In this document: positions 2,454-19,920 of the stretch, piece after piece
Layout of the letters: the number at the start of each line of letters is the position of its first letter
Position numbering within the stretch: the first letter of the stretch is position 1
From: a virus
DNA: 25,527 nucleotides
IMG/VR virus record: IMGVR_UViG_3300010357_000632
Reading direction: 5' to 3' (one strand)
Notes under the pieces: model-generated
What the model saw: only the letters and a program-made list of their open reading frames with translations
Told to the model about the DNA's origin: nothing
The model's database searches: none
Program-made: the position numbers and the translations under genes

Positions 2454-3631
2454 ACGATCTGTTTGGCGGCGGTTATGCCGCTGACCTCGATTCTTAGAAC
2501 GTTGTGTTGACTAACTGATATGTTCAGTCCGGTTTTGGTCATATAGACGTTGCTGGATATGGCAAAACTGTCCACGGCGGACCCTTTGGCTGCACCAATG
2601 GCATGCTTATAAAGAGTGCAGGTGATCGAGCTTGACACGCGGCCAACTTCCCAGACATCGGCCCTGGTGATCTTGCAAGCGATGGGGGCTGCAAATTCAT
2701 GAACAGCGGCCTCAATAACATCCGATCCGTTCCCAAAAGGAAAGTCGATCTCAAAGTTCCTGGTAATCCACGAACCATCTCCCTTGAGGGCCTGGGCCGT
2801 GTTTGGATATTTCTGCATCAGGCCATGCTTTGTGGTGGAGGCGTTGAGGTCGGTGTTGTCATCGCCTGCCGCAAGATCATCGATCTTGATGGCGTCCGCT
2901 CCACCGGATGCATGCCGGGCAGCATGAGCTAGCTGAGCATACCGGGCATCTCCTCGGGCCTGGTTGTAATAGATTGAGTGATCGTCATCTGTTCTGCCCC
3001 CCAGGCTACCATGATCTATCTGGGCACCATCTCCACCTGAATGGTCGTGAGAATCGCCGTTGGTGACTCCTTTGGCGGCTGGTGCACATTCCGCCAGAAC
3101 ATCCCTCACCGCCTTCTCGGAGGCGGGCATGGCGTCCGTGCCTGGTGTCCCTATGGAGGTTGCCAGATCGCCCACCCCCCCAGCGAACATCCAGATGTAT
3201 TCGGATGTGATGGCTGTGCATTCTGCCGGTATCCAGATGGCTCCTATAATGGCTCCGGGTGGGATAGAAGAGGGGGGCAGAGGAGAGGTATAGCTCTTCC
3301 AGTCGCTCAGCCCCTTGGGGTCCTCGATCGTCGCTGGTGTGCCTTTAGCTATCTGGGCAGCCCCAGCTACATCTCTGTAAATTATATCAATCCTGGGTAA
3401 CGTAGCATGCGCGGCATCGTGGGTTACGGTATCCTCTACCACGTCGGATGGTGTTCCGGCTATCTTAATCCTACCGGCACCGATCGTCACCACCATATCT
3501 GCCGGGGTCGATGCGGTCAGCCGGTTGCCATTGACAACCCCGGTTTCCCGGCTGGCTCTCGACACGGCCTCGATGTGGCTAGTCAGGATTGTTTGGTTTA
3601 CTACTGGTGATAAAAAATCAGTGTCGGTCAA
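2426..3631 (-). CDS. Tail fibre-like protein (401 aa)
   Basis: N-terminal attachment-like domain (HATLPRIDII), fibre motifs HDHSGGDGAQIDH and HAARHASGGADAI, and a C-terminal beta domain. Confidence 0.6.
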   Translation of the reverse strand: MTDTDFLSPVVNQTILTSHIEAVSRASRETGVVNGNRLTASTPADMVVTIGAGRIKIAGTPSDVVEDTVTHDAAHATLPRIDIIYRDVAGAAQIAKGTPATIEDPKGLSDWKSYTSPLPPSSIPPGAIIGAIWIPAECTAITSEYIWMFAGGVGDLATSIGTPGTDAMPASEKAVRDVLAECAPAAKGVTNGDSHDHSGGDGAQIDHGSLGGRTDDDHSIYYNQARGDARYAQLAHAARHASGGADAIKIDDLAAGDDNTDLNASTTKHGLMQKYPNTAQALKGDGSWITRNFEIDFPFGNGSDVIEAAVHEFAAPIACKITRADVWEVGRVSSSITCTLYKHAIGAAKGSAVDSFAISSNVYMTKTGLNISVSQHNVLRIEVSGITAAKQIVCRLFCEAT

Positions 3632-3646
3632 GATTAACCACCCACA

Positions 3647-3877
3647 TTAAAATAATCCGAAAGCGGCAGCAGCCAAACCGACCAGGGTTACCACGACGGC
3701 AGACGCGATATACACAGACATCTTAAATCCTTCAAGGCATCCGATGCGCTTTTCGTGGTCACCTAGCTGGTTACAATGGGCGTCCAGCTTCTTCTCTATC
3801 CGTTCGTCTCGTTCGTCCATACGGTGTGTCCGCTCATCAACACGGGCCAACATAGTTTCTACCGTATCGGCTGGCAT
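3647..3877 (-). CDS. Small coiled-coil protein with C-terminal transmembrane helix (lysis-cassette type)
   Basis: LARVDERTHRMDERDERIEKKL...RIGCLE followed by hydrophobic VYIASAVVVTLVGLAAAAFGLF. Confidence 0.7.
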   Translation of the reverse strand: MPADTVETMLARVDERTHRMDERDERIEKKLDAHCNQLGDHEKRIGCLEGFKMSVYIASAVVVTLVGLAAAAFGLF

Positions 3878-3891
3878 TGTTATCGCCAGCG

Positions 3892-4104
3892 TCAGATTTT
3901 AGCCGGACTATTTGTGATTTTGCGCAGGAAAGCCATGATCAGGGCCGCGATCATGAGCACGTTGGCAGGATCCATATCAATCAGGCCGCCGATGAACCCG
4001 GCTGCACCGGGGTCGATGAACTCAGCCAGTCCGATGATGAACATTGCCAGGGCCACGATGTAGGTCTTAGATCCTGGTAGGATCTCTTCGAGCTTGTTTA
4101 ACAT
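3892..4104 (-). CDS. Putative holin-like membrane protein
   Basis: 70 aa, two hydrophobic segments, GSKTYI motif at the start of TM1, basic C-terminus; GGAGGT RBS. Confidence 0.6.
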   Translation of the reverse strand: MLNKLEEILPGSKTYIVALAMFIIGLAEFIDPGAAGFIGGLIDMDPANVLMIAALIMAFLRKITNSPAKI

Positions 4105-4106
4105 TT

Positions 4107-4472
4107 TCAGTTACCTCCGGGGAAGGTCTTGATACTGGCCTGGTCCTTGGACAGCCTCATGAATCCGGCAGTGTTGAGCGTTACTTTGGTGCTGTCACTC
4201 ATGCCCTTGATAGCATTTCCAAGGACAAACAGGTTCTTGTCCACCTCTTCGACTATCTCATCCAGGAACTTGACAATATCGTTGTCATCGTCCGGCAAGT
4301 ACCCGGCCTGGATGTCTGTGGACTGGAGCTTGTCAATCATGGTCTGAAGCTCAGCGATCTCTTCTCTGAGGTAGTCCATCATCCTGCTGTTCTTCTCTAC
4401 GAATGAGTTGTATCCACCGTCTATAACCATCGATGCCAGCTTAGCATCAGTATTGACTCTTTCGTCTGCCAT
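4107..4472 (-). CDS. Hypothetical coiled-coil protein
   Basis: Start moved to MADERV (4472), which has GGAGGAG upstream and follows the previous stop; heptad-like MMDYLREEIAELQTMIDKLQ. Confidence 0.7.
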   Translation of the reverse strand: MADERVNTDAKLASMVIDGGYNSFVEKNSRMMDYLREEIAELQTMIDKLQSTDIQAGYLPDDDNDIVKFLDEIVEEVDKNLFVLGNAIKGMSDSTKVTLNTAGFMRLSKDQASIKTFPGGN

Positions 4473-4474
4473 TT

Positions 4475-4753
4475 TTACACTCCTCCACATCTTAACGGTA
4501 TTTTCTTAGTTACGTTACCCGGCACGCCTTCCCCATTGTCAGCCAGGAAGGCATTGATACTGGGGGTCCATCCAGCACCACCAGCATCGGACACCACCCA
4601 TCCGGTGCCGTCCCCCGCGAATATTGCCTCGATCTCAGACATATTGAGGCCGCTGAGGTCCTTGACGGCAGGGCTGGTGTATTGTACGTAGTCTGCGGAT
4701 GCTACCCCCACAATCGCTATGAAGGCGATCATTGTAAGTAAAATTGCGTTCAT
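4475..4753 (-). CDS. Small secreted protein with signal peptide
   Basis: MNAILLTMIAFIAIVGVASA-D signal peptide; two N-x-S/T sequons; GGAG RBS. Confidence 0.7.
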   Translation of the reverse strand: MNAILLTMIAFIAIVGVASADYVQYTSPAVKDLSGLNMSEIEAIFAGDGTGWVVSDAGGAGWTPSINAFLADNGEGVPGNVTKKIPLRCGGV

Positions 4754-5091
4754 CGTGTGTCTCCTTGTGTCGGAAACTTTCCCAGGCTCCCGACTGCCTG
4801 ATCTTTCTCGCTGTTCCAGCCCAAGACCGCTATCTTCTGCTTACACATACGGTCCCAGACCGGCACTGGGTTGTAGCCGAAGCGTTTCTCCCATTGTTTC
4901 TCTGTCCACTGCTGACCGGCCCCATCGATATAAACGATAGTACCATCGGGATATCGCAGCTTGCCGTTGGGAATCCTCTTCAGCTCCTCCGGAGTCTTAC
5001 AGAAGCTTGCAAACTCCTCGTCGGTAAGCCCCTCCCCTGGCAGGCAGCAAGCCTCTTCCTTCTTTGGGGCCTTCTTAAATTGGTGTACCAT
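4750..5091 (-). CDS. Hypothetical protein (113 aa)
   Basis: GAGGT RBS; 4-bp overlap with the next gene; no family recognised. Confidence 0.7.
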   Translation of the reverse strand: MVHQFKKAPKKEEACCLPGEGLTDEEFASFCKTPEELKRIPNGKLRYPDGTIVYIDGAGQQWTEKQWEKRFGYNPVPVWDRMCKQKIAVLGWNSEKDQAVGSLGKFPTQGDTR

Positions 5092-5101
5092 AAAAATAAC
5101 C

Positions 5102-5731
5102 TCAGATGTAAATTATGACCGAATCGTCCCAGTCACTGCCATCGATCCAGGTTGTGTCGTTGATCGAATCGATGGTTTCCGTCTCATTGGTCGTCTGGTT
5201 CGGCGTCTGGTTGATGTCGATCACCGGAGTGTTCGCCCACTCCGTGCCGTTCCACATCTCGATTGGGATGTTCTCGAACTCCGTGGTCACGTGGAGGAAG
5301 AGCTTTCCTTCGCCCTTCAATCCGCCTATCGGAAATGGCCGGACACTGGAAGCGTATGGCCGGGTTGGATAGGATATGGCAGACATCTTTCCACTACCAG
5401 AGAGATCGATAATGGTGCCATTAGAATCAGCTTCGGCAACGATCTCCCCGGAGAACTTCTTCAATCTGATTGAATAGTCGCCAGACTGGAAGGAATAGCT
5501 CGCAGAGCCATTGGAAATGTTCAGGCCGCTTGACAGTCCGCTGGGGTAGATTTCGGCTCCGTAATCATACCGGCCCTGTGCGATCGTCCGGTCGGTGACC
5601 TTATCGCTATCGTGCCAGGCTTCCATGTAGCCTTCGCCTTGGAACGATTCTGAGAGGATGCATGCACCGACAGAAACGAGCGGCAGAAGGACGATGATGA
5701 GCCACCACACTTTGGTAGGATCTATTTTCAC
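5102..5731 (-). CDS. Secreted/membrane-anchored putative glycoprotein
   Basis: GTG start with GAGGT RBS; N-terminal hydrophobic segment WWLIIVLLPLVSVGA; eight N-x-S/T sequons. Confidence 0.75.
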   Translation of the reverse strand: MKIDPTKVWWLIIVLLPLVSVGACILSESFQGEGYMEAWHDSDKVTDRTIAQGRYDYGAEIYPSGLSSGLNISNGSASYSFQSGDYSIRLKKFSGEIVAEADSNGTIIDLSGSGKMSAISYPTRPYASSVRPFPIGGLKGEGKLFLHVTTEFENIPIEMWNGTEWANTPVIDINQTPNQTTNETETIDSINDTTWIDGSDWDDSVIIYI

Positions 5732-5761
5732 GAAATTACCTCATTTAGATTTTTTGGCCGT

Positions 5762-5825
5762 CCCCTAGGGGCAAACTTGGGCCGCGAAAGCAATACTTAG
5801 CGGCCCGAATGTGGGTTTATAAAAA
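5762..5825 (-). promoter_or_regulatory. Putative internal archaeal promoter with hairpin and palindrome
   Basis: TTTATAAA at 5816-5823, stem GGGCCGC (5779-5785) / GCGGCCC (5800-5806), and perfect palindrome CCCCTAGGGG (5762-5771), all in a 102-bp intergenic gap. Confidence 0.5.
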
Positions 5826-5833
5826 TGTCCGTA

Positions 5834-6424
5834 TTATGCACAATTATAAACCCTGAAAGGCTGGGTATTGTCCAGCTCCAGGTCTACCGCACTGTCTACA
5901 TTTTTTACGTAAATGTCAATCATCCGGTCGCCCTGGTGAGGATCTACAAACCGGATCTGATCGCCGATGTTTAGGGGCTCTTCGCTCCATATGTCATAAT
6001 TTGTTTGTTGCCACCCCGAACCGCTCCTGTCTCTCAGGATGCGCGTCTTGGGGAAGCATATGATCTCCATCGGCGCCAGCGTCTCGTTCTGTAGGCATTC
6101 CCCATCGACTGAGATCAACTCGACCGTGATCTTGCAGTCTAGGCCGGTTACTGTGATAGTGGGCCAGGAGGTGAGCTCTTCCTCGGCGGTCAGCCTGGTC
6201 GCCCTGGTGAAGGTCAGTTCCTCATCATTCACCTTCACGATTCCGGCTACATCCGTATGCCCTGCTATGGCCTGGGTTATGATAGCCGCCCGGAAGGGCA
6301 CCGTTGGAATGGACCCTGCCAGTACCACGGGAGGCACGCCGGAGAAAGCGACCCAGTTGCCAAGTTCAACCTTCCAGGCGTTGTTCACGCCCGTCTTGAA
6401 CTCGGCGAAGTACTCTCCGCTCAT
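5834..6424 (-). CDS. Putative head-closure / neck-associated structural protein
   Basis: Directly follows the adaptor. The C-terminal half (ICFPKTRILRDRSGSGWQQTNYDIWSEEPLNIGDQI) resembles small beta-barrel head-closure proteins. Confidence 0.5.
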   Translation of the reverse strand: MSGEYFAEFKTGVNNAWKVELGNWVAFSGVPPVVLAGSIPTVPFRAAIITQAIAGHTDVAGIVKVNDEELTFTRATRLTAEEELTSWPTITVTGLDCKITVELISVDGECLQNETLAPMEIICFPKTRILRDRSGSGWQQTNYDIWSEEPLNIGDQIRFVDPHQGDRMIDIYVKNVDSAVDLELDNTQPFRVYNCA

Positions 6425-13795: not shown

Positions 13796-14848
13796 TCAGG
13801 CTACCACGTTCTTCATGAACATGCCTGCAGTTTTGGCCATTACCACCGGGCACCAGCACTGGAAGCCCTGGTAATAGGTTGTGTGGGTGTGCAGGTCGGG
13901 GACCTGAGAGAGGGCGGTATCGAATCCACCCAGAGGTTCGTTGAAGGACAGGTTCATGCCCGCTAGGGTAGTCAGAGGTCCGGGGGAGGTCACGTATCCC
14001 AGCCAGATGTGCTTACCGAATATCCAGTCAAGCGCGACAGTATCACCGGGAGCGGCGGTGTTGTACATGGCTTTAGCCACCAGAACGTTATCGATGTCCA
14101 GAGCCTGAGCTATCATCTGCTCGTTCAGCTTGGTGGGGACCTTGTCAGCACCCTGTGGGTTCCTGTAGAGACTGATCAGCTGGTTGTTGATCCTCAGCTC
14201 CTCGTATGCCTGCTCCCCTATGACCATGGTGTTGGGCAGGAGACCGCATGCCTTCTTAATGGCCAGCTTGCTGTCCTTGAATACGCCCAGGGGGTCAGAG
14301 TCTGCATCATTGAACTGCCTGATAGTCTCGCCTGTGGTGATCTCTCCAGGAGTCCAGGTCTCACCGCTGCCAGTTCCAGTGACATCGATTCCCCAAACAG
14401 ACTCCTTGAAGTAGCTGTTGGCGATGACCAGCTCCTTATTCAACTGGAGCACGTCAGTAACCATGTTGGTTGTCGCCTGCTCGATGGGGTAGCCCTGGTC
14501 GGCCACAAAGGGGATGTCGGCCATGAGGGGCATTTCGAAGGCATACCGTCGGCACACATACGAGCCGGGGGTATCTACCTTGAGTTCTCCCTGGGGCGGG
14601 ATGCTGCCGGGTCTCCACTCACCTGCCTTGTTGGTAAAGTGATTCTCCATAGCCCACTTGGGATAGAGACCGGCTATCTGGTTCACCGATATCATGGGGA
14701 ACCATTTATCAGCCACGAAGTTTGTGGGTTCCTGCCTGTAGGCGAGAGACCACTCCGATTCCAGCCGGGCTACGTGGATCTGTGAATAGTCCAGGCCCTT
14801 GTTAACCACCTGCTGGGCCAGGGATGCTATAGTTTCTTTGTAATCCAT
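13796..14848 (-). CDS. Major capsid protein (HK97 fold)
   Basis: 350 aa; IHV...AY.Q...FVAD..FP.ISV N-terminus and PNTMVIG...YEEL..N motif; position after scaffold and cement genes; GAGGTGA RBS. Confidence 0.9.
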   Translation of the reverse strand: MDYKETIASLAQQVVNKGLDYSQIHVARLESEWSLAYRQEPTNFVADKWFPMISVNQIAGLYPKWAMENHFTNKAGEWRPGSIPPQGELKVDTPGSYVCRRYAFEMPLMADIPFVADQGYPIEQATTNMVTDVLQLNKELVIANSYFKESVWGIDVTGTGSGETWTPGEITTGETIRQFNDADSDPLGVFKDSKLAIKKACGLLPNTMVIGEQAYEELRINNQLISLYRNPQGADKVPTKLNEQMIAQALDIDNVLVAKAMYNTAAPGDTVALDWIFGKHIWLGYVTSPGPLTTLAGMNLSFNEPLGGFDTALSQVPDLHTHTTYYQGFQCWCPVVMAKTAGMFMKNVVA

Positions 14849-14859
14849 GAATCATCACC

Positions 14860-15279
14860 TCAAATGTTCGCCTGGTACGTGAACAGTCTCACGGTAGCCG
14901 GGAGCCCCGCAGCAGCAGCGACTTCGCACTGTCCCACGATGATATCCTTGTTGGTGGGCGTGGCCTTGTCGCCGACACCACCAGTACCGACCTTCACCAG
15001 GTCACCTACTGCCAGACCCGCGCTCCCTGCCTTGACCAGTGCTTTACCTCTCCACTGGACCAGCGCGGTGATTGAGAAGTTGGTGGAAGTCGCGGTTTCC
15101 GTAGGCCTGTTGCACAGGACGCCTACCGGATGGCCGCTTGTGAATGCCTGTACTGTCCGGGCTCTTGTGGTGTCCAGCTGGACGAAACAGTACTCCAGAG
15201 CAGACATGTCACCGTCCGGATTGTAGGGGCTAATGTCTCCTGGAAGAGCTTCCCTGAAGGGGGCTGTCATGTCAGTCAC
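14860..15279 (-). CDS. Capsid cement/decoration protein (DUF2190-like)
   Basis: 139 aa directly upstream of the MCP; PVGVLCN, GKALVKAG...LAVGDLV and IVGQCEVAAAAG motifs. Confidence 0.7.
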   Translation of the reverse strand: MTDMTAPFREALPGDISPYNPDGDMSALEYCFVQLDTTRARTVQAFTSGHPVGVLCNRPTETATSTNFSITALVQWRGKALVKAGSAGLAVGDLVKVGTGGVGDKATPTNKDIIVGQCEVAAAAGLPATVRLFTYQANI

Positions 15280-15280
15280 T

Positions 15281-15931
15281 TCAGATCACCCCCATCTGAG
15301 CGCGCACAGTACCTGCCCTCTCCTCGGCCAACACGGACTTAGCCAGAGCGCCATTCTCGCGAGTGGCTGCGGCTACCGCCAGAGCATGGCGAACCTTGGG
15401 ATCTGTGGGGCCGCTACCGGACTTCTGGATTAGGCTCTCGTGCTTGGTTACCAGGGCTTCGAACTCGGCCATAGAGGTCCCAGGTGCGGGCCTGTCGCTA
15501 CCCATCGGATGATAGAGCAGCTTACCGGCCTCGGCCTTCATTACGCTGGCCTGCTTGAGGGTCTTCAAGATAGTCTTCCGGGCCTCGGTCGGCAGAGCTT
15601 CCAGGCTCTTCAGGATCTCAGCACCCTCTTCAGGAGTCCCCAGGCCGGAGAAATCGGACTTGGCTATCTGCTCATACTCCTTCTTGCGGAGGATAGAGCG
15701 CAGCTCCTCGTTCTCCTTGCGGATCGGTTCGACTGCTTTCTGGACGATATCCAGCAGCTCAGCCTTGCTGACCAGAGCCCTAGCTCCGGCCTTGTCAGCC
15801 CTAGCGGGCTTGGTCTTTCTCATCGGTACACTTCCATTAGCTGATTTATATAATAAGAAACGCTTCCCATTAGCCGCTTTACCGACTAGGGAAACCTCAT
15901 CCAGTTCTAAATCCGTAAGTTCGTTTGGCAA
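15281..15931 (-). CDS. Capsid scaffolding protein
   Basis: TTG start with GAGGTGA RBS; N-terminal L.DLE.DEVSLV.K.AN...FLL.K motif; helical; lies between the protease and capsid genes. Confidence 0.65.
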   Translation of the reverse strand: MPNELTDLELDEVSLVGKAANGKRFLLYKSANGSVPMRKTKPARADKAGARALVSKAELLDIVQKAVEPIRKENEELRSILRKKEYEQIAKSDFSGLGTPEEGAEILKSLEALPTEARKTILKTLKQASVMKAEAGKLLYHPMGSDRPAPGTSMAEFEALVTKHESLIQKSGSGPTDPKVRHALAVAAATRENGALAKSVLAEERAGTVRAQMGVI

Positions 15932-15963: not shown

Positions 15964-16929
15964 TCAGAAGGGGGTGCGTGTGCCGGTCCCTGCGATGGAG
16001 AAGCCGGTTATCTCGCCTTTCTTCACGGCCTGCCAGAGAGAGGGGTCGTGGATCTTTACCGCCATTACCCAGCTTCCTTTTCTGACCTTTTGGCCGTTGC
16101 ACTTGAAGTTGGTTGGGGCGATATAGCTCTCGATGATACTGGCTTTGGCGGGCCCGGAGTGCTCCTTGCCGATCCTCTGGCTGGTCTGCATGAACTTGTG
16201 ACATGCCTTCCTGATCTCGGACTCGCTCAGTCGGTCGCCCTGAAGATCGATTACCCCAGGTTCACTAACGACTCCATAGCAGATCTGCTGGTCTGCGGCC
16301 TTGGAGACAATGATAGGCACCCGGTAGGACTTCATGACCTTGCTTACTTCGTCCTCGTCTTCCTCATCCTCATCATCTTCCTTCAGGAACTCGGGGAGGT
16401 CTTCATCCTCTTCATCTTCGTCCTCTTCAGGCTCTTCGTCCTCGGCCTTCTCTGCCTCATGCTCTGCCAGGACTTCGCGGATGTCGTCTATGAGGTCACT
16501 GGTAGCCTCCTCTTCGGGCTCAGTTTCATCACCGAAAAGATCCTCTTCAGATATGCCGTCGTCTGGGTCAGCATCGGCCTCGATCTGCTCTTCTTCGCCT
16601 TCATCGGGGTCTGGTGTGTCCTCGGGCTCAGGCTCGTCTGATCCGCCCTCGTCCTGCATCTCAAGCCACTGCTCAAGTGCTGCCTTGTGCTTGGATTCGT
16701 CTTGTTTGATGGCTTCCGCCATTTCTTTGAGCTGTGGGTCAGTGGCCATCTCGATCAGCTGGTCGATTTCATCTATGCCTTCGCCTTCACCGGCCAGTAT
16801 GGCGCGAACGCGATCTAAATCGGAGCCTTTCTCCAGCTCCTCGTCTTCTATATATTCTTCTTCATCCATAGAATTACCTTCTAATCGGGGAACGTGGATG
16901 TCTCCGAAATCGATACCTTTGTTAATCAT
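15964..16929 (-). CDS. XkdF-like putative prohead serine protease with extended N-terminus (capsid-arm copy, ferritin-like hairpin, acidic linker)
   Basis: C-terminal QQICYGVVSEPGVIDLQGD...EIRKACHKFM...IGKEH...IIESYIAP...KGSWVMAVKI.D..LW..VKKGEITGFSIAG is the XkdF signature. A second possible start lies at 16869 (GAAGGT upstream). Confidence 0.85.
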   Translation of the reverse strand: MINKGIDFGDIHVPRLEGNSMDEEEYIEDEELEKGSDLDRVRAILAGEGEGIDEIDQLIEMATDPQLKEMAEAIKQDESKHKAALEQWLEMQDEGGSDEPEPEDTPDPDEGEEEQIEADADPDDGISEEDLFGDETEPEEEATSDLIDDIREVLAEHEAEKAEDEEPEEDEDEEDEDLPEFLKEDDEDEEDEDEVSKVMKSYRVPIIVSKAADQQICYGVVSEPGVIDLQGDRLSESEIRKACHKFMQTSQRIGKEHSGPAKASIIESYIAPTNFKCNGQKVRKGSWVMAVKIHDPSLWQAVKKGEITGFSIAGTGTRTPF

Positions 16930-16943
16930 GAGAACACCGATAG

Positions 16944-16974
16944 ATATATATACTAATACGTACTAGTATGTATT
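16944..16974 (+). promoter_or_regulatory. TATA box followed by a palindromic operator
   Basis: ATATATATA at 16944-16952; AATACGTACTAGTATGTATT at 16955-16974 is an 18/20 palindrome; GGTGA RBS precedes the ATG at 16986. Confidence 0.7.
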
Positions 16975-16985
16975 GGTGAAGTGAA

Positions 16986-17480
16986 ATGAACACGAACGAC
17001 CTAATATCTCAAGTCACGGAATGTAGAAGCGAACGATGGCAGAACAGTGATATCAGCAGAGGCGGGGAGAGGCTGCTGGAGATCCTGGCTGCCCATATGC
17101 AGGAATGTGAAGAATGCAGAGACGCATTCGACGCGGAAGAGTATGAAGAAGATACACTCATAGACCTCTGGCATCGCTACATGTGCCAGACAGAGGATAT
17201 CTCCGAATGGATTTGCGAGGAAGGGCTTCAGGCCCTCTTCGACCATCCTTTAGACGTTTTCGTGATTGTCCCCGCCCAGGAGGGGGTTGTGGGATATCCC
17301 AGATTCGTGATCGAACTCTCCGAGCCTGCCCTGGAGTATGAGGTCGAAAAAAGATGGCCCGGCGCTGAAATGGGCGATTTCGAACTCTGCGAAGAACCGG
17401 AGGCATCGGAGGATGAGTATGTAATGATGGTCACTGTTGGTGGTGAGACCGTGGCCCGCGTCTACACCCAGGAGGCTTGA
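16986..17480 (+). CDS. Highly acidic protein with C-x23-H-x3-C-x2-C motif; function unknown
   Basis: Only substantial plus-strand ORF with no competing minus-strand gene; own promoter and RBS; about 41 D/E versus about 10 K/R in 164 aa. Confidence 0.85.
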   Translation: MNTNDLISQVTECRSERWQNSDISRGGERLLEILAAHMQECEECRDAFDAEEYEEDTLIDLWHRYMCQTEDISEWICEEGLQALFDHPLDVFVIVPAQEGVVGYPRFVIELSEPALEYEVEKRWPGAEMGDFELCEEPEASEDEYVMMVTVGGETVARVYTQEA

Positions 17481-17481
17481 A

Positions 17482-17616
17482 ATGGTTTTCGTGAAGAAAA
17501 CCATTACCATCCGGCAAGACCAGGATGTGTGGATCAAAGAGCATCCCAAGATCAATCTCTCTGGCCAGATCCAACACTGGCTAGATAACCTCATAGACGC
17601 ATATGAGCAACACTAA
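17482..17616 (+). CDS. Ribbon-helix-helix DNA-binding protein (44 aa, below the ORF-track cutoff)
   Basis: Translated by hand: MVFVKKTITIRQDQDVWIKEHPKINLSGQIQHWLDNLIDAYEQH. GGAGG RBS at 17471; alternating beta-strand KKTITI, then a helix, then NLS..I...L. Confidence 0.75.
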   Translation: MVFVKKTITIRQDQDVWIKEHPKINLSGQIQHWLDNLIDAYEQH

Positions 17617-18818
17617 TATGTGTGGAACCTCTTCTTTGATTTGGTTCCATCCGGATGGGCATACTCTACCACGATATCGGTACTGCACTCCCCATGTTCG
17701 CTGTCGCACGGGGAAGACCATCGCCGAATCTCCGTTTTTTCGCCCGTGGACCGCGCTTGGTCGAATGCTTTGGCCTCTTGTGCTGCCCTTTTATCAGCAT
17801 GTGCCTTGTCGCGGGCCGCTTGCTCCCCCTCAGCCGCATCGATGATCTCCTTGAGCTTCTCGTGCGGTATTTCGTACCACCTATAACCACCCGCGTCCGG
17901 GGCACGTTTGCTGCTGTTCAACATGGCCTGCCATATCTGTGTGTGATATCTCTCGATCTTGGCTTTCATGTCCTGCAGATCGGGCCGGAACTCGGTTCCA
18001 ACTTCCTTAGGATGATAGACCGGCATGCCATCGTCGGTCCAGCGCCACGTCTTGACCTGGACTTTGGCAGCATCGTCTTTTAGCCCCTGAATGTTTCTCT
18101 TGTCCTCTTCTTTGATGTGGGTGATGGCTTCGGGTGGTAAGGTTAAGAAAACGTCTTGCTTTCCCTTTCCAAGAAGTTTTCCTATATTGCTATATCTCGA
18201 AAAGTTGACGCCGGACTTGCCTTGTTTCACTCCGACATCTGACGCGCTAAACTTAGCATCTACCGAAATTGGCCTGGTGATCTTTATTGCGAACGTTGAC
18301 CGGCTCACGCCATTGTGGTGAGACGTTCCGTCGAGTGTGATCTCTACGTCCTTATTGGCGTCGGAGAACTTCTTGGTTTCGGGTGTCTGTGTTTGTTCAG
18401 GTTTCCCCTCCCCCTCCGGCTTCTTTGTGGGCTCCGGCTGCTTCTCAGGTTCTGGCTTCTTCTCGGGCTCTTTTGGCTTGCTCGTGTTCAGCCATCCGAT
18501 CTTGTCCAATGCGCTGCCACCACTCAAGAGTGTCTGGATAGCACCGGACACTCGTCCCTGGCTGGCTGCTTCCGCACGCCTTTCCAGCTTCCTCTTCGTC
18601 TTGGATGGCTTCTTGGAGCCGCCTCCTGAGCCCGACGTGAACTTGCCATCGTCTGCACGGGGGTGCTTGGATTCCTCCCAATCGCCCGCTTTCTTGAGTC
18701 GGTGATTGGTGCCGCCGAGAAATATAGAGCCGTCCGGGGCTACGTGGTGCCGCCTAGCCTCTTCGAACCAATCAAGATTCCGGAGGATAGACTTGAGGAT
18801 GGGTATGCGCATGATCAT
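17613..18818 (-). CDS. Putative head-associated cargo protein with WEESKHPR..GKF motif
   Basis: GAGGT RBS; MIMRIPILKS leader; DWEESKHPRADDGKFTSGSGGG; P/E/K-rich linker; C-terminal domain of unknown function. Confidence 0.8.
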   Translation of the reverse strand: MIMRIPILKSILRNLDWFEEARRHHVAPDGSIFLGGTNHRLKKAGDWEESKHPRADDGKFTSGSGGGSKKPSKTKRKLERRAEAASQGRVSGAIQTLLSGGSALDKIGWLNTSKPKEPEKKPEPEKQPEPTKKPEGEGKPEQTQTPETKKFSDANKDVEITLDGTSHHNGVSRSTFAIKITRPISVDAKFSASDVGVKQGKSGVNFSRYSNIGKLLGKGKQDVFLTLPPEAITHIKEEDKRNIQGLKDDAAKVQVKTWRWTDDGMPVYHPKEVGTEFRPDLQDMKAKIERYHTQIWQAMLNSSKRAPDAGGYRWYEIPHEKLKEIIDAAEGEQAARDKAHADKRAAQEAKAFDQARSTGEKTEIRRWSSPCDSEHGECSTDIVVEYAHPDGTKSKKRFHTY

Positions 18819-18954: not shown

Positions 18955-19920
18955 TCAGGTCGATCCAGGATAATCAATTGGCAATAAGTGGTGAATGCAA
19001 TTCGGATGCAGGAGGCCCTGTGAAATGGCAGTATCAAGAGCAGGATACTCTTTCGACTTTCCCGAGATAGATACAATCTTCCCGGCCCACTCGCGGCATA
19101 CGTCGCAGGTGTTCGGCCTGATCTCACGAGAAATCAAGACCAGATCCTCTTTCTGCTCGACTGCCCGGTTGATTGATCCTTCGTTAAATGAGTTCCTAGC
19201 AGCTGTGATCGCCACCATCTGAATGTAATCTGCGATCCCCAGCTCTTTTCCGTCTATCGTCTTGTGACCTATGATCCTGCCTTTCAGGCCTGTATAGTCA
19301 GCCTTCTTGTTAGCCAGCGCTGCCTGTGCCCGTCTCTTCTCCGATTCGGCTATGACCTCTTCTATGTGTCTGGAGAGCTGAGCATCCACTTCCCGGAAGC
19401 GGTTCATCTCCTGAGTGGCCATGGCCTGAGCAGCTTTAGCATGCGGCCCCTGTAGTGACCCAGCACGAGATCCCGCCAGGTACAGACCTGGGATGGAAGT
19501 TCCCAGCCAGGAGGCGGCATTCACCAACAGCTCTCGCCTGATCCGGTCTGTGAGGGCCCTCAGCCTGTCCGGGTTATCGAGGTTCTGGTCGATGGCCGCC
19601 TTGATCGCCTTCTCGCCTCGCTTGTAGAGCAGAGCGATGATAGCAGCGGTCTCTTTGATCCTCTTCCGGGGGTCCTTCTCTTTCTCGGAGGCTCGGACAG
19701 CCTTCTCGATCTCTGACAGAGGGAGCTGGGATAGAAGGAAGGTCTCTGGTCTGCCGGCAGCACGCCAGAGCTTGCGCTTCAAGTCTGGCAGGTCATAGCC
19801 CAGAGCTCGAGCTCTGCGCCAGAACGATGGGGTGAGCAGGTCGTATCTGGCTTGATCGGTGAGGTCCCCATCCGACAAGTAGCCGGTTGCTCGGATCAGA
19901 GAGAGAAGTTCGGAGTTCAT
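18955..19920 (-). CDS. Phage minor capsid / head morphogenesis protein (MuF / minor capsid 2-like)
   Basis: C-terminal TCDVCREWAGKIVSISG...YP.L...GLLHPNCIH motif; position after the portal. Confidence 0.85.
   Translation of the reverse strand: MNSELLSLIRATGYLSDGDLTDQARYDLLTPSFWRRARALGYDLPDLKRKLWRAAGRPETFLLSQLPLSEIEKAVRASEKEKDPRKRIKETAAIIALLYKRGEKAIKAAIDQNLDNPDRLRALTDRIRRELLVNAASWLGTSIPGLYLAGSRAGSLQGPHAKAAQAMATQEMNRFREVDAQLSRHIEEVIAESEKRRAQAALANKKADYTGLKGRIIGHKTIDGKELGIADYIQMVAITAARNSFNEGSINRAVEQKEDLVLISREIRPNTCDVCREWAGKIVSISGKSKEYPALDTAISQGLLHPNCIHHLLPIDYPGST

Follow-up and report, generated by a model that had tools for sequence, protein, structure and literature searches.

A major capsid protein-like N-terminal peptide on the XkdF-type protease ORF of a virus with a likely Methanothrix host

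The window, the whole stretch of 25,527 nucleotides that was analysed (IMG/VR virus record IMGVR_UViG_3300010357_000632), carries its head genes on the minus strand throughout, with portal, terminase and tail genes nearby. The genes and features of the locus are listed in Table 1, together with the tag junctions (see below) of related lineages; a downward arrow marks a putative cut. A TATA-like AT-rich element and a palindrome of the divergent small cassette (16930-16985) precede the first ATG of the XkdF-type ORF by only 15-45 nt. In genomes of the window type this promoter arrangement may influence which isoform of the XkdF-type protein is made. The locus was compared with 42 related viral contigs, whose major capsid protein (MCP) identity ranges from 99% down to 51%, and with a contig from a Methanothrix MAG (L058) and a Logan contig (L063). 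Contig L058 (JAOAKP010000055.1) was binned to Methanothrix sp. and has an MCP identity of 76%; one further protein match carries a Methanothrix label. The host of the clade described here is likely the acetoclastic methanogen Methanothrix.

Table 1. Head genes of the window in transcription order, features within the XkdF-type ORF and the MCP, and tag junctions in the window and in related lineages
Feature	Position	Strand	Description
MuF-like minor head protein	18955-19920	minus	First of the head genes in transcription order
401-aa protein	17613-18818	minus	Second head gene in transcription order
Small cassette	16986-17616	opposite to head genes	Between the 401-aa protein and the XkdF-type ORF
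XkdF-type ORF	15964-16929	minus	321 aa; starts MINKGIDFGDIHVPRLEGNSM
Tag of the long XkdF isoform, residues 1-17	16879-16929	minus	Leader MINK, putative cut K4↓G5, then GIDFGDIHVPRLE
Shine-Dalgarno-like GAAGGT	16876-16881	minus	Upstream of the internal ATG; overlaps codons E17-G18
Internal ATG (Met21)	16867-16869	minus	Start of the putative tag-less 301-aa isoform; in all relatives, as GTG in L063
EncFtn-like half-ferritin helical hairpin, residues 31-94	16648-16839	minus	E...ExxH ligands; PDB matches, AF2
Very acidic linker, residues 95-200	16330-16647	minus	Ends at invariant V-M-K200↓S201, candidate cut before the protease domain
XkdF-type putative serine protease domain, residues 204-318	15976-16320	minus	PF14550, phrog_3017
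Scaffold-like protein	15281-15931	minus	216 aa; candidate partner of the MCP N-arm; role suggested by synteny
Cement-like protein	14860-15279	minus	Between the scaffold-like protein and the MCP
MCP, HK97 fold	13796-14848	minus	350 aa; VVNKGLDYSQIHVARLE at residues 14-30
MCP residues 1-17	14798-14848	minus	Putative propeptide ending V-N-K17; family start point and junction rule
MCP residues 18-30	14759-14797	minus	GLDYSQIHVARLE; predicted mature N-terminus, N-arm tip; the stretch that is copied
Tag junction, window			MINK↓G
Tag junction, L028, L039			IRK↓G
Tag junction, L037			IIK↓G
Tag junction, L007, L036			ILSK↓S; 9-residue leader before the tag
Tag junction, L063			YRK↓G
Tag junction, L032, L058			M↓G

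The MCP matches phrog_1005 (E-value 4.8e-55), and its AF2 model has the HK97 fold with a pLDDT of 90.6. In a Foldseek search the model matched 3bjq (2e-18), followed by HK97, HFTV1 and many phage capsids (1e-10 to 1e-9); encapsulins were found as well. A structure search of the PDB gave the 3bjq crystal as the only close solved relative and no solved capsid of this MCP family. Residues 18-30 have a low pLDDT in the monomer model, as would be the case for a flexible arm.

An exhaustive search yielded 1906 relatives of the MCP, 96 of which were aligned (alignment A2). About three quarters of the aligned proteins begin 9-10 residues ahead of a conserved His, with a typical start of M-P-x-P-T-x-x-D-V-H-V-x-R-P-L and the family motif (x)PTxxDVHVxRPL. 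N-terminal extensions are found in 23 of the 96, and all of these except one (22/23) have hydrophobic-x-K/R exactly where the unextended proteins have the initiator Met; position P3 of these junctions is V, I, L, M or F. According to the simplest reading, the extensions would be propeptides that are removed after K/R, restoring the fixed N-terminal length of the family. The common start point and the junction rule together suggest that the length of the free MCP N-terminus is constrained. The MCP of the window would be cut at V-N-K17↓G18, and x-NK↓G, proposed as a processing site from the sequence of the window, is very probably a real one, given how consistently the extended proteins follow the rule. 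In HK97 the cut in gp5 likewise follows a Lys.

The long isoform of the XkdF-type protein would consist of four parts, namely the N-terminal peptide that resembles the MCP (the tag), a ferritin-like hairpin, an acidic linker and the XkdF protease domain. The protease domain matches PF14550 (Peptidase_S78_2) with an E-value of 9.4e-33 and 113 bits against a cut-off of 24, over profile positions 2-124 of 126, and phrog_3017 'head maturation protease' with an E-value of 2e-39. H244, H257, S286 and S311 are invariant in alignment A4. The MCP junction rule is the one indication that XkdF may cleave after Lys; a literature search gave no paper on XkdF specificity. The first 44 residues of the scaffold-like protein (15800-15931, minus strand) match positions 1-43 of phrog_3017, and positions 37-154 are matched by the XkdF domain; on these profile matches, the pair of ORFs resembles a rearranged protease-scaffold protein.

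A phmmer search of the hairpin against the PDB matched 5da5 and 6suw (E-value about 2e-3), with E32, E62 and H65 of 5da5 paired with E, E and H of the query. Profile A1 matched bacterioferritin (3e-10), NE0167 (6e-6), EncFtn (1.5e-5) and EncB (9e-5) in the PDB. AF2 placed the helices of the hairpin at residues 37-61 and 65-94, and a TDPxL turn is present in it. For PF22277 the protein of the window is below the cut-off (19.3 vs 27 bits), and its relatives P0052, P0053 and P0066 carry matches. When the XkdF model was used in a structure search, generic helical hairpins made up the bulk of the matches, and the match to EncB (Z 8.6, 25% identity) is not distinctive. A C-terminal cargo-loading peptide and an adjacent encapsulin gene were looked for at this locus and are absent; the hairpin is followed by the acidic linker and the protease, the only terminal tag on the hairpin protein is the N-terminal, MCP-like one, and the neighbouring shell gene is that of a tailed-virus MCP. 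The literature search gave no paper on ferritin-like domains in phage proteases, and to our knowledge a ferritin-like domain has not been described in the head protease of any virus.

Residues 95-205, comprising the linker, were mostly modelled by AF2 with low confidence, the exception being a helix predicted at 142-162. All sequences of alignment A4 have K200. V-M-K200↓S201 is followed by YRVPIIVSK↓A (16300-16340, minus strand), just ahead of the protease domain. The 401-aa protein and the HNH protein presumably have MIMRIPILK[SA] leaders, which the sequence-only reading linked to the K200 segment; this likeness is possibly a second case of peptide copying. In the monomer fold of the long isoform residues 1-35 are disordered (pLDDT about 30) and do not dock on the protease domain, which counts neither way as to where the peptide binds. 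In L017 (2865-4568) and L036 (1480-3228), both on the plus strand, the tag, hairpin and linker precede another XkdF domain with 43% identity, which is fused in frame to the scaffold protein to give a total of 567-600 aa. The presence of the same three elements on a different XkdF domain indicates that the N-terminal module is shuffled as a unit.

The ungapped alignment of XkdF residues 2-17 with MCP residues 15-30 that had first drawn attention to the tag was borne out, with 10/16 identities plus I/V, I/L and F/Y, and six of the ten identical residues do differ in codon between the two copies. Pairwise BLASTP aligned XkdF residues 1-17 with MCP residues 14-30 without gaps (E-value 1e-4). The DNA identity between the copies is 31/48. 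When the whole window was scanned in six frames, the comparison of the two copies had a score of 60, against 33 for the runner-up 16-mer, and no third copy was found; blastp-short of the MCP N-terminus against all ORFs of the window gave the XkdF match at an E-value of 2e-5. The match recurs in independent relatives and is best in L058 (11/14 identities, E-value 8e-6), whose tag also has the best match to its own MCP (10 of 13 residues). The similarity between tag and MCP exceeds chance. From the comparison of the MCP family, the copied stretch corresponds to the cut site and the mature N-arm tip, not to an arbitrary internal segment, and GIDFGDIHVPRLE would reproduce residues 1-13 of the mature MCP.

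The tag always stands directly after K or the initiator Met. The same register is reached by three routes, which are a short leader with K↓G, a long leader or polyprotein with K↓G or K↓S, and a start at M↓G. As the protease copy either keeps the site or starts directly at M↓G, the same N-terminus would be free in protease and MCP, and the existence of three routes to it suggests that the retained free peptide is the functional unit. Conservation of the tag is highest at D-[IV]-H-V-P-R-L, which occupies P6'-P12' of the putative cut, 6 to 12 residues beyond it. A cut of the T4 type (LxE↓) behind RLE was rejected, since this position varies (E, G, V or Q).

A lack of translation and of in-frame conservation in the first 20 codons of the XkdF ORF had been named as one ground for refutation. 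Among the relatives they are conserved in frame, with many synonymous changes; the tag itself is in frame in every lineage except L041/L042, and many third positions differ with the residues unchanged. For the 12-codon core of the tag in eight haplotypes, pN/pS is 0.38 with a pS of 0.60, and the shifted frames of the same stretch give 0.98 and 1.45. These values agree with the earlier proposal that selection acts on the peptide and that the likeness is not simply a DNA copy. Judged by this codon evidence, the tag peptide is translated and under purifying selection. No Rfam family covers the tag site, and its RNA folds less stably than shuffled sequences (z +2.3), so RNA structure does not account for the conservation of the tag.

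Contig L063 has the tag at residue 564 of an 886-aa ORF (3207-5867, plus strand), with Y-R-K directly before it. Within this ORF, residues 1-201 of the MuF-like protein are fused to a middle part like the 354-aa protein, which is followed by tag, ferritin-like hairpin, linker and XkdF. The ORF may be a head polyprotein that occurs in nature or else the result of a deleted or chimeric contig, and it was used as supporting evidence only, because it is a single contig that may contain deletions. In L041 (3050-3095) and L042, both on the plus strand, an in-frame TAG interrupts the tag and leaves the remnant ..YVPKLGDNM; the hairpin of these two contigs also has no ExxH motif. This joint loss, a single event, hints that tag and hairpin work together.

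A second start with its own ribosome-binding site had been proposed at 16869. The start codon stood the comparison, as it is universal in the relatives (Table 1); the Shine-Dalgarno-like motif of the window itself is weak. Met21 is the only possible start in L041/L042, the gene call of the window itself (P0027) begins there, and gene callers are split between both starts. A few codons before Met21 there is always a purine-rich Shine-Dalgarno-like motif, and the amino acids at this place are not conserved. Shine-Dalgarno strength was taken as the predicted pairing to a generic 16S tail, by which 9% of all minus-strand ATGs reach -8 kcal/mol. The GAAGGT of the window has a value of -4.4 kcal/mol, which is about the background mean. 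The internal start is preceded by GGAGG, GGTGA, AGGTGAT or similar in six other lineages (-9.4 to -10.5 kcal/mol), and the value in L041 is -7.2 kcal/mol. At the first start the values are -8 to -10 kcal/mol in L007, L028, L032 and L058, -6.5 kcal/mol in the window and -2.6 kcal/mol in the L002 type. The suggestion of long and short isoforms is plausible in view of the conserved internal ATG and the strong motifs of the six other lineages. Since the internal ATG with a Shine-Dalgarno-like motif is universally conserved, a tag-less short XkdF isoform likely exists. In T4, a nested start in the gene of the protease gp21 gives rise to a short form (gp21s, Met45) that is essential (PMC9026906).

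The MCP family is shared by seven cultured phages (Shrooms, 9NA, RHph_TM3_3_10, RDJL Phi 1, KPP23, ValentiniPuff and 13VV501A), in which the synteny of the protease, scaffold, cement and MCP genes is also the same. A second copy of the own MCP N-terminus is absent from all seven, which shows that the motif is not a generic feature of XkdF proteins or MCP modules, an explanation that had been named as fatal to a specific role. A degenerate DNA pattern for the tag, run on viral contigs, gave matches only in the same clade. Single-protein scans with the L037 MCP, P0077 and P0073 gave zero new loci, and a search for shorter stand-alone proteins with tag and ferritin-like part gave fragments only. 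The tag is restricted to one clade. Co-variation between the tag and its cognate MCP, which had been suggested as a check, is present but weak, with a mean score of 36.6 vs 35.1 +/- 0.7 in shuffled pairs (P about 0.025, relatedness uncorrected). Only 4/13 positions agree between the tag and its own MCP in L063 and in L039, and two tag residues are fixed differences from the MCP (D6 vs Q, P10 vs A/S). All lineages with His at position 8 of the MCP have His in the tag too, and where the MCP has Met the tag has Ser or His or is lost; this pattern is suggestive.

What the peptide does was considered on the basis of these comparisons. We tentatively prefer, although we stop short of calling it probable, the reading that it is a docking tag, which mimics the tip of the MCP N-arm and tethers the polyprotein inside the assembling shell. 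A cut after Lys4 (MINK↓G) would give the same free N-terminus in the same register as in the MCP cut at VNK↓G, and where the protein starts M↓G the removal of Met alone would do so. The tag would then fill a site of the procapsid that normally receives an MCP N-arm tip. Either the scaffold protein or an adjacent MCP could provide this site, which on the MCP would be empty for as long as the MCP propeptides are uncut. Docking would hold the polyprotein against the inside of the shell, and initiation at the ATG at 16869 would yield the tag-less isoform, so that the choice of start would set the number of tags. Of these steps, we infer the cleavage after K, the docking itself and the identity of the receptor site from the pattern as a whole.

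Docking is favoured by the established role of N-arm tips as contact elements. In procapsids with a separate scaffold, one end of the scaffold touches the MCP N-arm helix, and in mature heads the N-arm makes inter-capsomer contacts near the threefold axes (PMC12749128). The conserved tag-less isoform is a further point, since it suits a sub-stoichiometric docking tag better than an obligatory inhibitor. The position of the conservation peak after the cut, the M↓G forms, which cannot be substrates, and the fact that other putative substrates carry h-x-K↓[SAG] only, without the extended motif, all argue in the same direction. L032 and L058 have no P-side residues and keep the downstream part best, which places the function in the retained peptide and not in the scissile bond. 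A complex prediction with three copies of MCP residues 31-350 and XkdF residues 5-34 had a score of 0.00, which speaks neither for nor against binding.

Several observations count against docking. The co-variation of the tag with its cognate MCP is weak and the differences D6 and P10 are fixed, both starts of the window are weak in Shine-Dalgarno pairing, and the first ATG has the TATA-like element only about 15-23 nt ahead of it, so that the main transcript may not include this start. The protease persists in L041/L042, where the tag was lost, so the tag is not needed for protease function in every lineage. L017/L036 keep the tag though they are fused to the scaffold, which would be unexpected if scaffold binding were its sole role. 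Docking could also take the form of self-mimicry cargo loading with a built-in timer, an elaboration that we consider unlikely. The tag would fill the pockets of uncut MCPs, the tethered protease would trim the MCPs, and their own N-termini would later displace the tag; release or final placement of the ferritin-like cargo would in this way be coupled to the completion of maturation. On this reading, the way in which an archaeal tailed virus loads EncFtn-like cargo would be related to encapsulin loading and yet distinct from it.

The strongest rival of docking, though a rather doubtful one, is a pseudo-substrate or regulatory peptide. The copy of the MCP site would bind the cleft of XkdF, in cis by way of the long flexible linker or in trans, and would keep the protease quiet, or compete with the MCP, until a high local concentration of MCP in the procapsid displaces it, in the manner of the propeptide of a zymogen. 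Prohead proteases must stay inactive before assembly, and the copy does include P3-P1 and P1' of the presumed MCP site (I-N-K↓G vs V-N-K↓G). Autocleavage of T4 gp21 has been suggested to be linked to activation, which also fits a regulatory role (PMC9026906). The decoy-substrate reading of the earlier note is, however, weakened by the two M↓G lineages L032 and L058, which start without P-side residues and have the downstream 12 residues almost intact. The conservation peak is far from the scissile bond, and a conserved tag-less isoform would escape such control.

Quite improbable is the reading as a processing cassette only, in which the copied site would let the protease cut its own polyprotein from an upstream part and the 13 residues would otherwise have no role. 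The internal junction of the 886-aa ORF in L063, the 9-residue leader in L007/L036 and the hydrophobic-x-K↓[SAG] at other junctions, such as the invariant VMK200↓S, fit this reading, but these other junctions do without the extended motif, and the window would lose only four residues and L032/L058 none, with the downstream part still under purifying selection. It is very improbable indeed that there is no functional peptide at all, but 5' leader or promoter DNA with a chance likeness, or a decaying partial duplication of the MCP 5' end: the gene call at the second ATG, the weak first starts of the window and L002 types, the in-frame stop in L041/L042 and the TATA-like element close to the first ATG would suit it, and it is opposed by the low pN/pS at near-saturated synonymous divergence with values of about 1 in the other frames, the frame kept in all lineages but one, the peptide internal to a long ORF in L063, the strong first starts of L007, L028, L032 and L058, the lack of an Rfam match or a stable RNA fold, and the six-frame E-value of 2e-5. 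Other partners of the tag, for example the portal, take up the probability that is left.

The entry of maturation proteases and other internal proteins into the procapsids of tailed viruses is known for only a few model phages. If docking by the tag is true, it would be a new and simple principle, in which the lattice's own contact peptide is used as an address label, and the tag would be a portable, testable handle by which foreign cargo might be brought into HK97-fold shells. It would also link a virus capsid to ferritin-like cargo of a kind so far known from encapsulins. From the hydrophobic-x-K/R↓ junction rule a cleavage specificity can be predicted for the XkdF protease family, for which no such characterisation was found in the literature searched.

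Known systems share single features with this arrangement. The CTS of the T4 internal proteins IPI-III is a short N-terminal peptide with a cut site of the prohead protease (PMC9026906). Its position on proteins that enter the prohead and its cut site are found here as well, whereas the T4 CTS is a propeptide that is removed, targets the scaffolding core and contains no MCP copy. In the XkdF-type protein the conserved part lies downstream of the presumed cut, would be retained, and copies the predicted mature N-terminus of the MCP. T4 gp21 resembles it as a prohead protease with long and short forms from nested starts, and the gp21 N-terminal propeptide has been suggested to target or activate the protease (PMC9026906). 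The N-terminus of gp21 is not reported to resemble gp23, and the protease families differ (gp21 vs XkdF PF14550). In HK97, a C-terminal peptide of the protease is reportedly responsible for procapsid incorporation, a result attributed to Duda, Oh and Hendrix in 2013. This too is a terminal peptide of a maturation protease, but it is C-terminal and not copied from the MCP, and the scaffold of HK97 is the delta domain of the MCP. Encapsulin cargo peptides are likewise short terminal peptides that dock ferritin-like cargo inside an HK97-fold shell, as might be the case for the EncFtn-like hairpin here; they are usually C-terminal and unrelated to the shell sequence, while the present tag mimics the shell and the shell is a virus capsid. 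In 80alpha the capsid, the scaffold and the host L27 share an N-terminal cleavage motif that is processed by the Prp protease. Two head proteins are thus alike at their N-termini through a common processing protease, but the likeness is in the removed part and the protease is that of the host, whereas here it extends 13 residues into the part that would be retained. None of these, the T4 CTS, the HK97 signal, the encapsulin peptides and the 80alpha motifs, is a retained copy of a mature MCP N-terminus. The initial statement that no case had been described has nevertheless to be qualified, because T4 gene 61.1 is a parallel at the sequence level: gp61.1 residues 3-40 match gp23 residues 58-95 with 45% identity (E-value 1.4e-5), a stretch that we take to span the maturation cut E65↓A66. 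Gene 61.1 encodes a free-standing protein of 54 aa that is not fused to a protease, and the MCP and protease families are other ones, but its copy of the MCP region about the maturation site makes it the nearest parallel in sequence to the tag of the XkdF-type protease.
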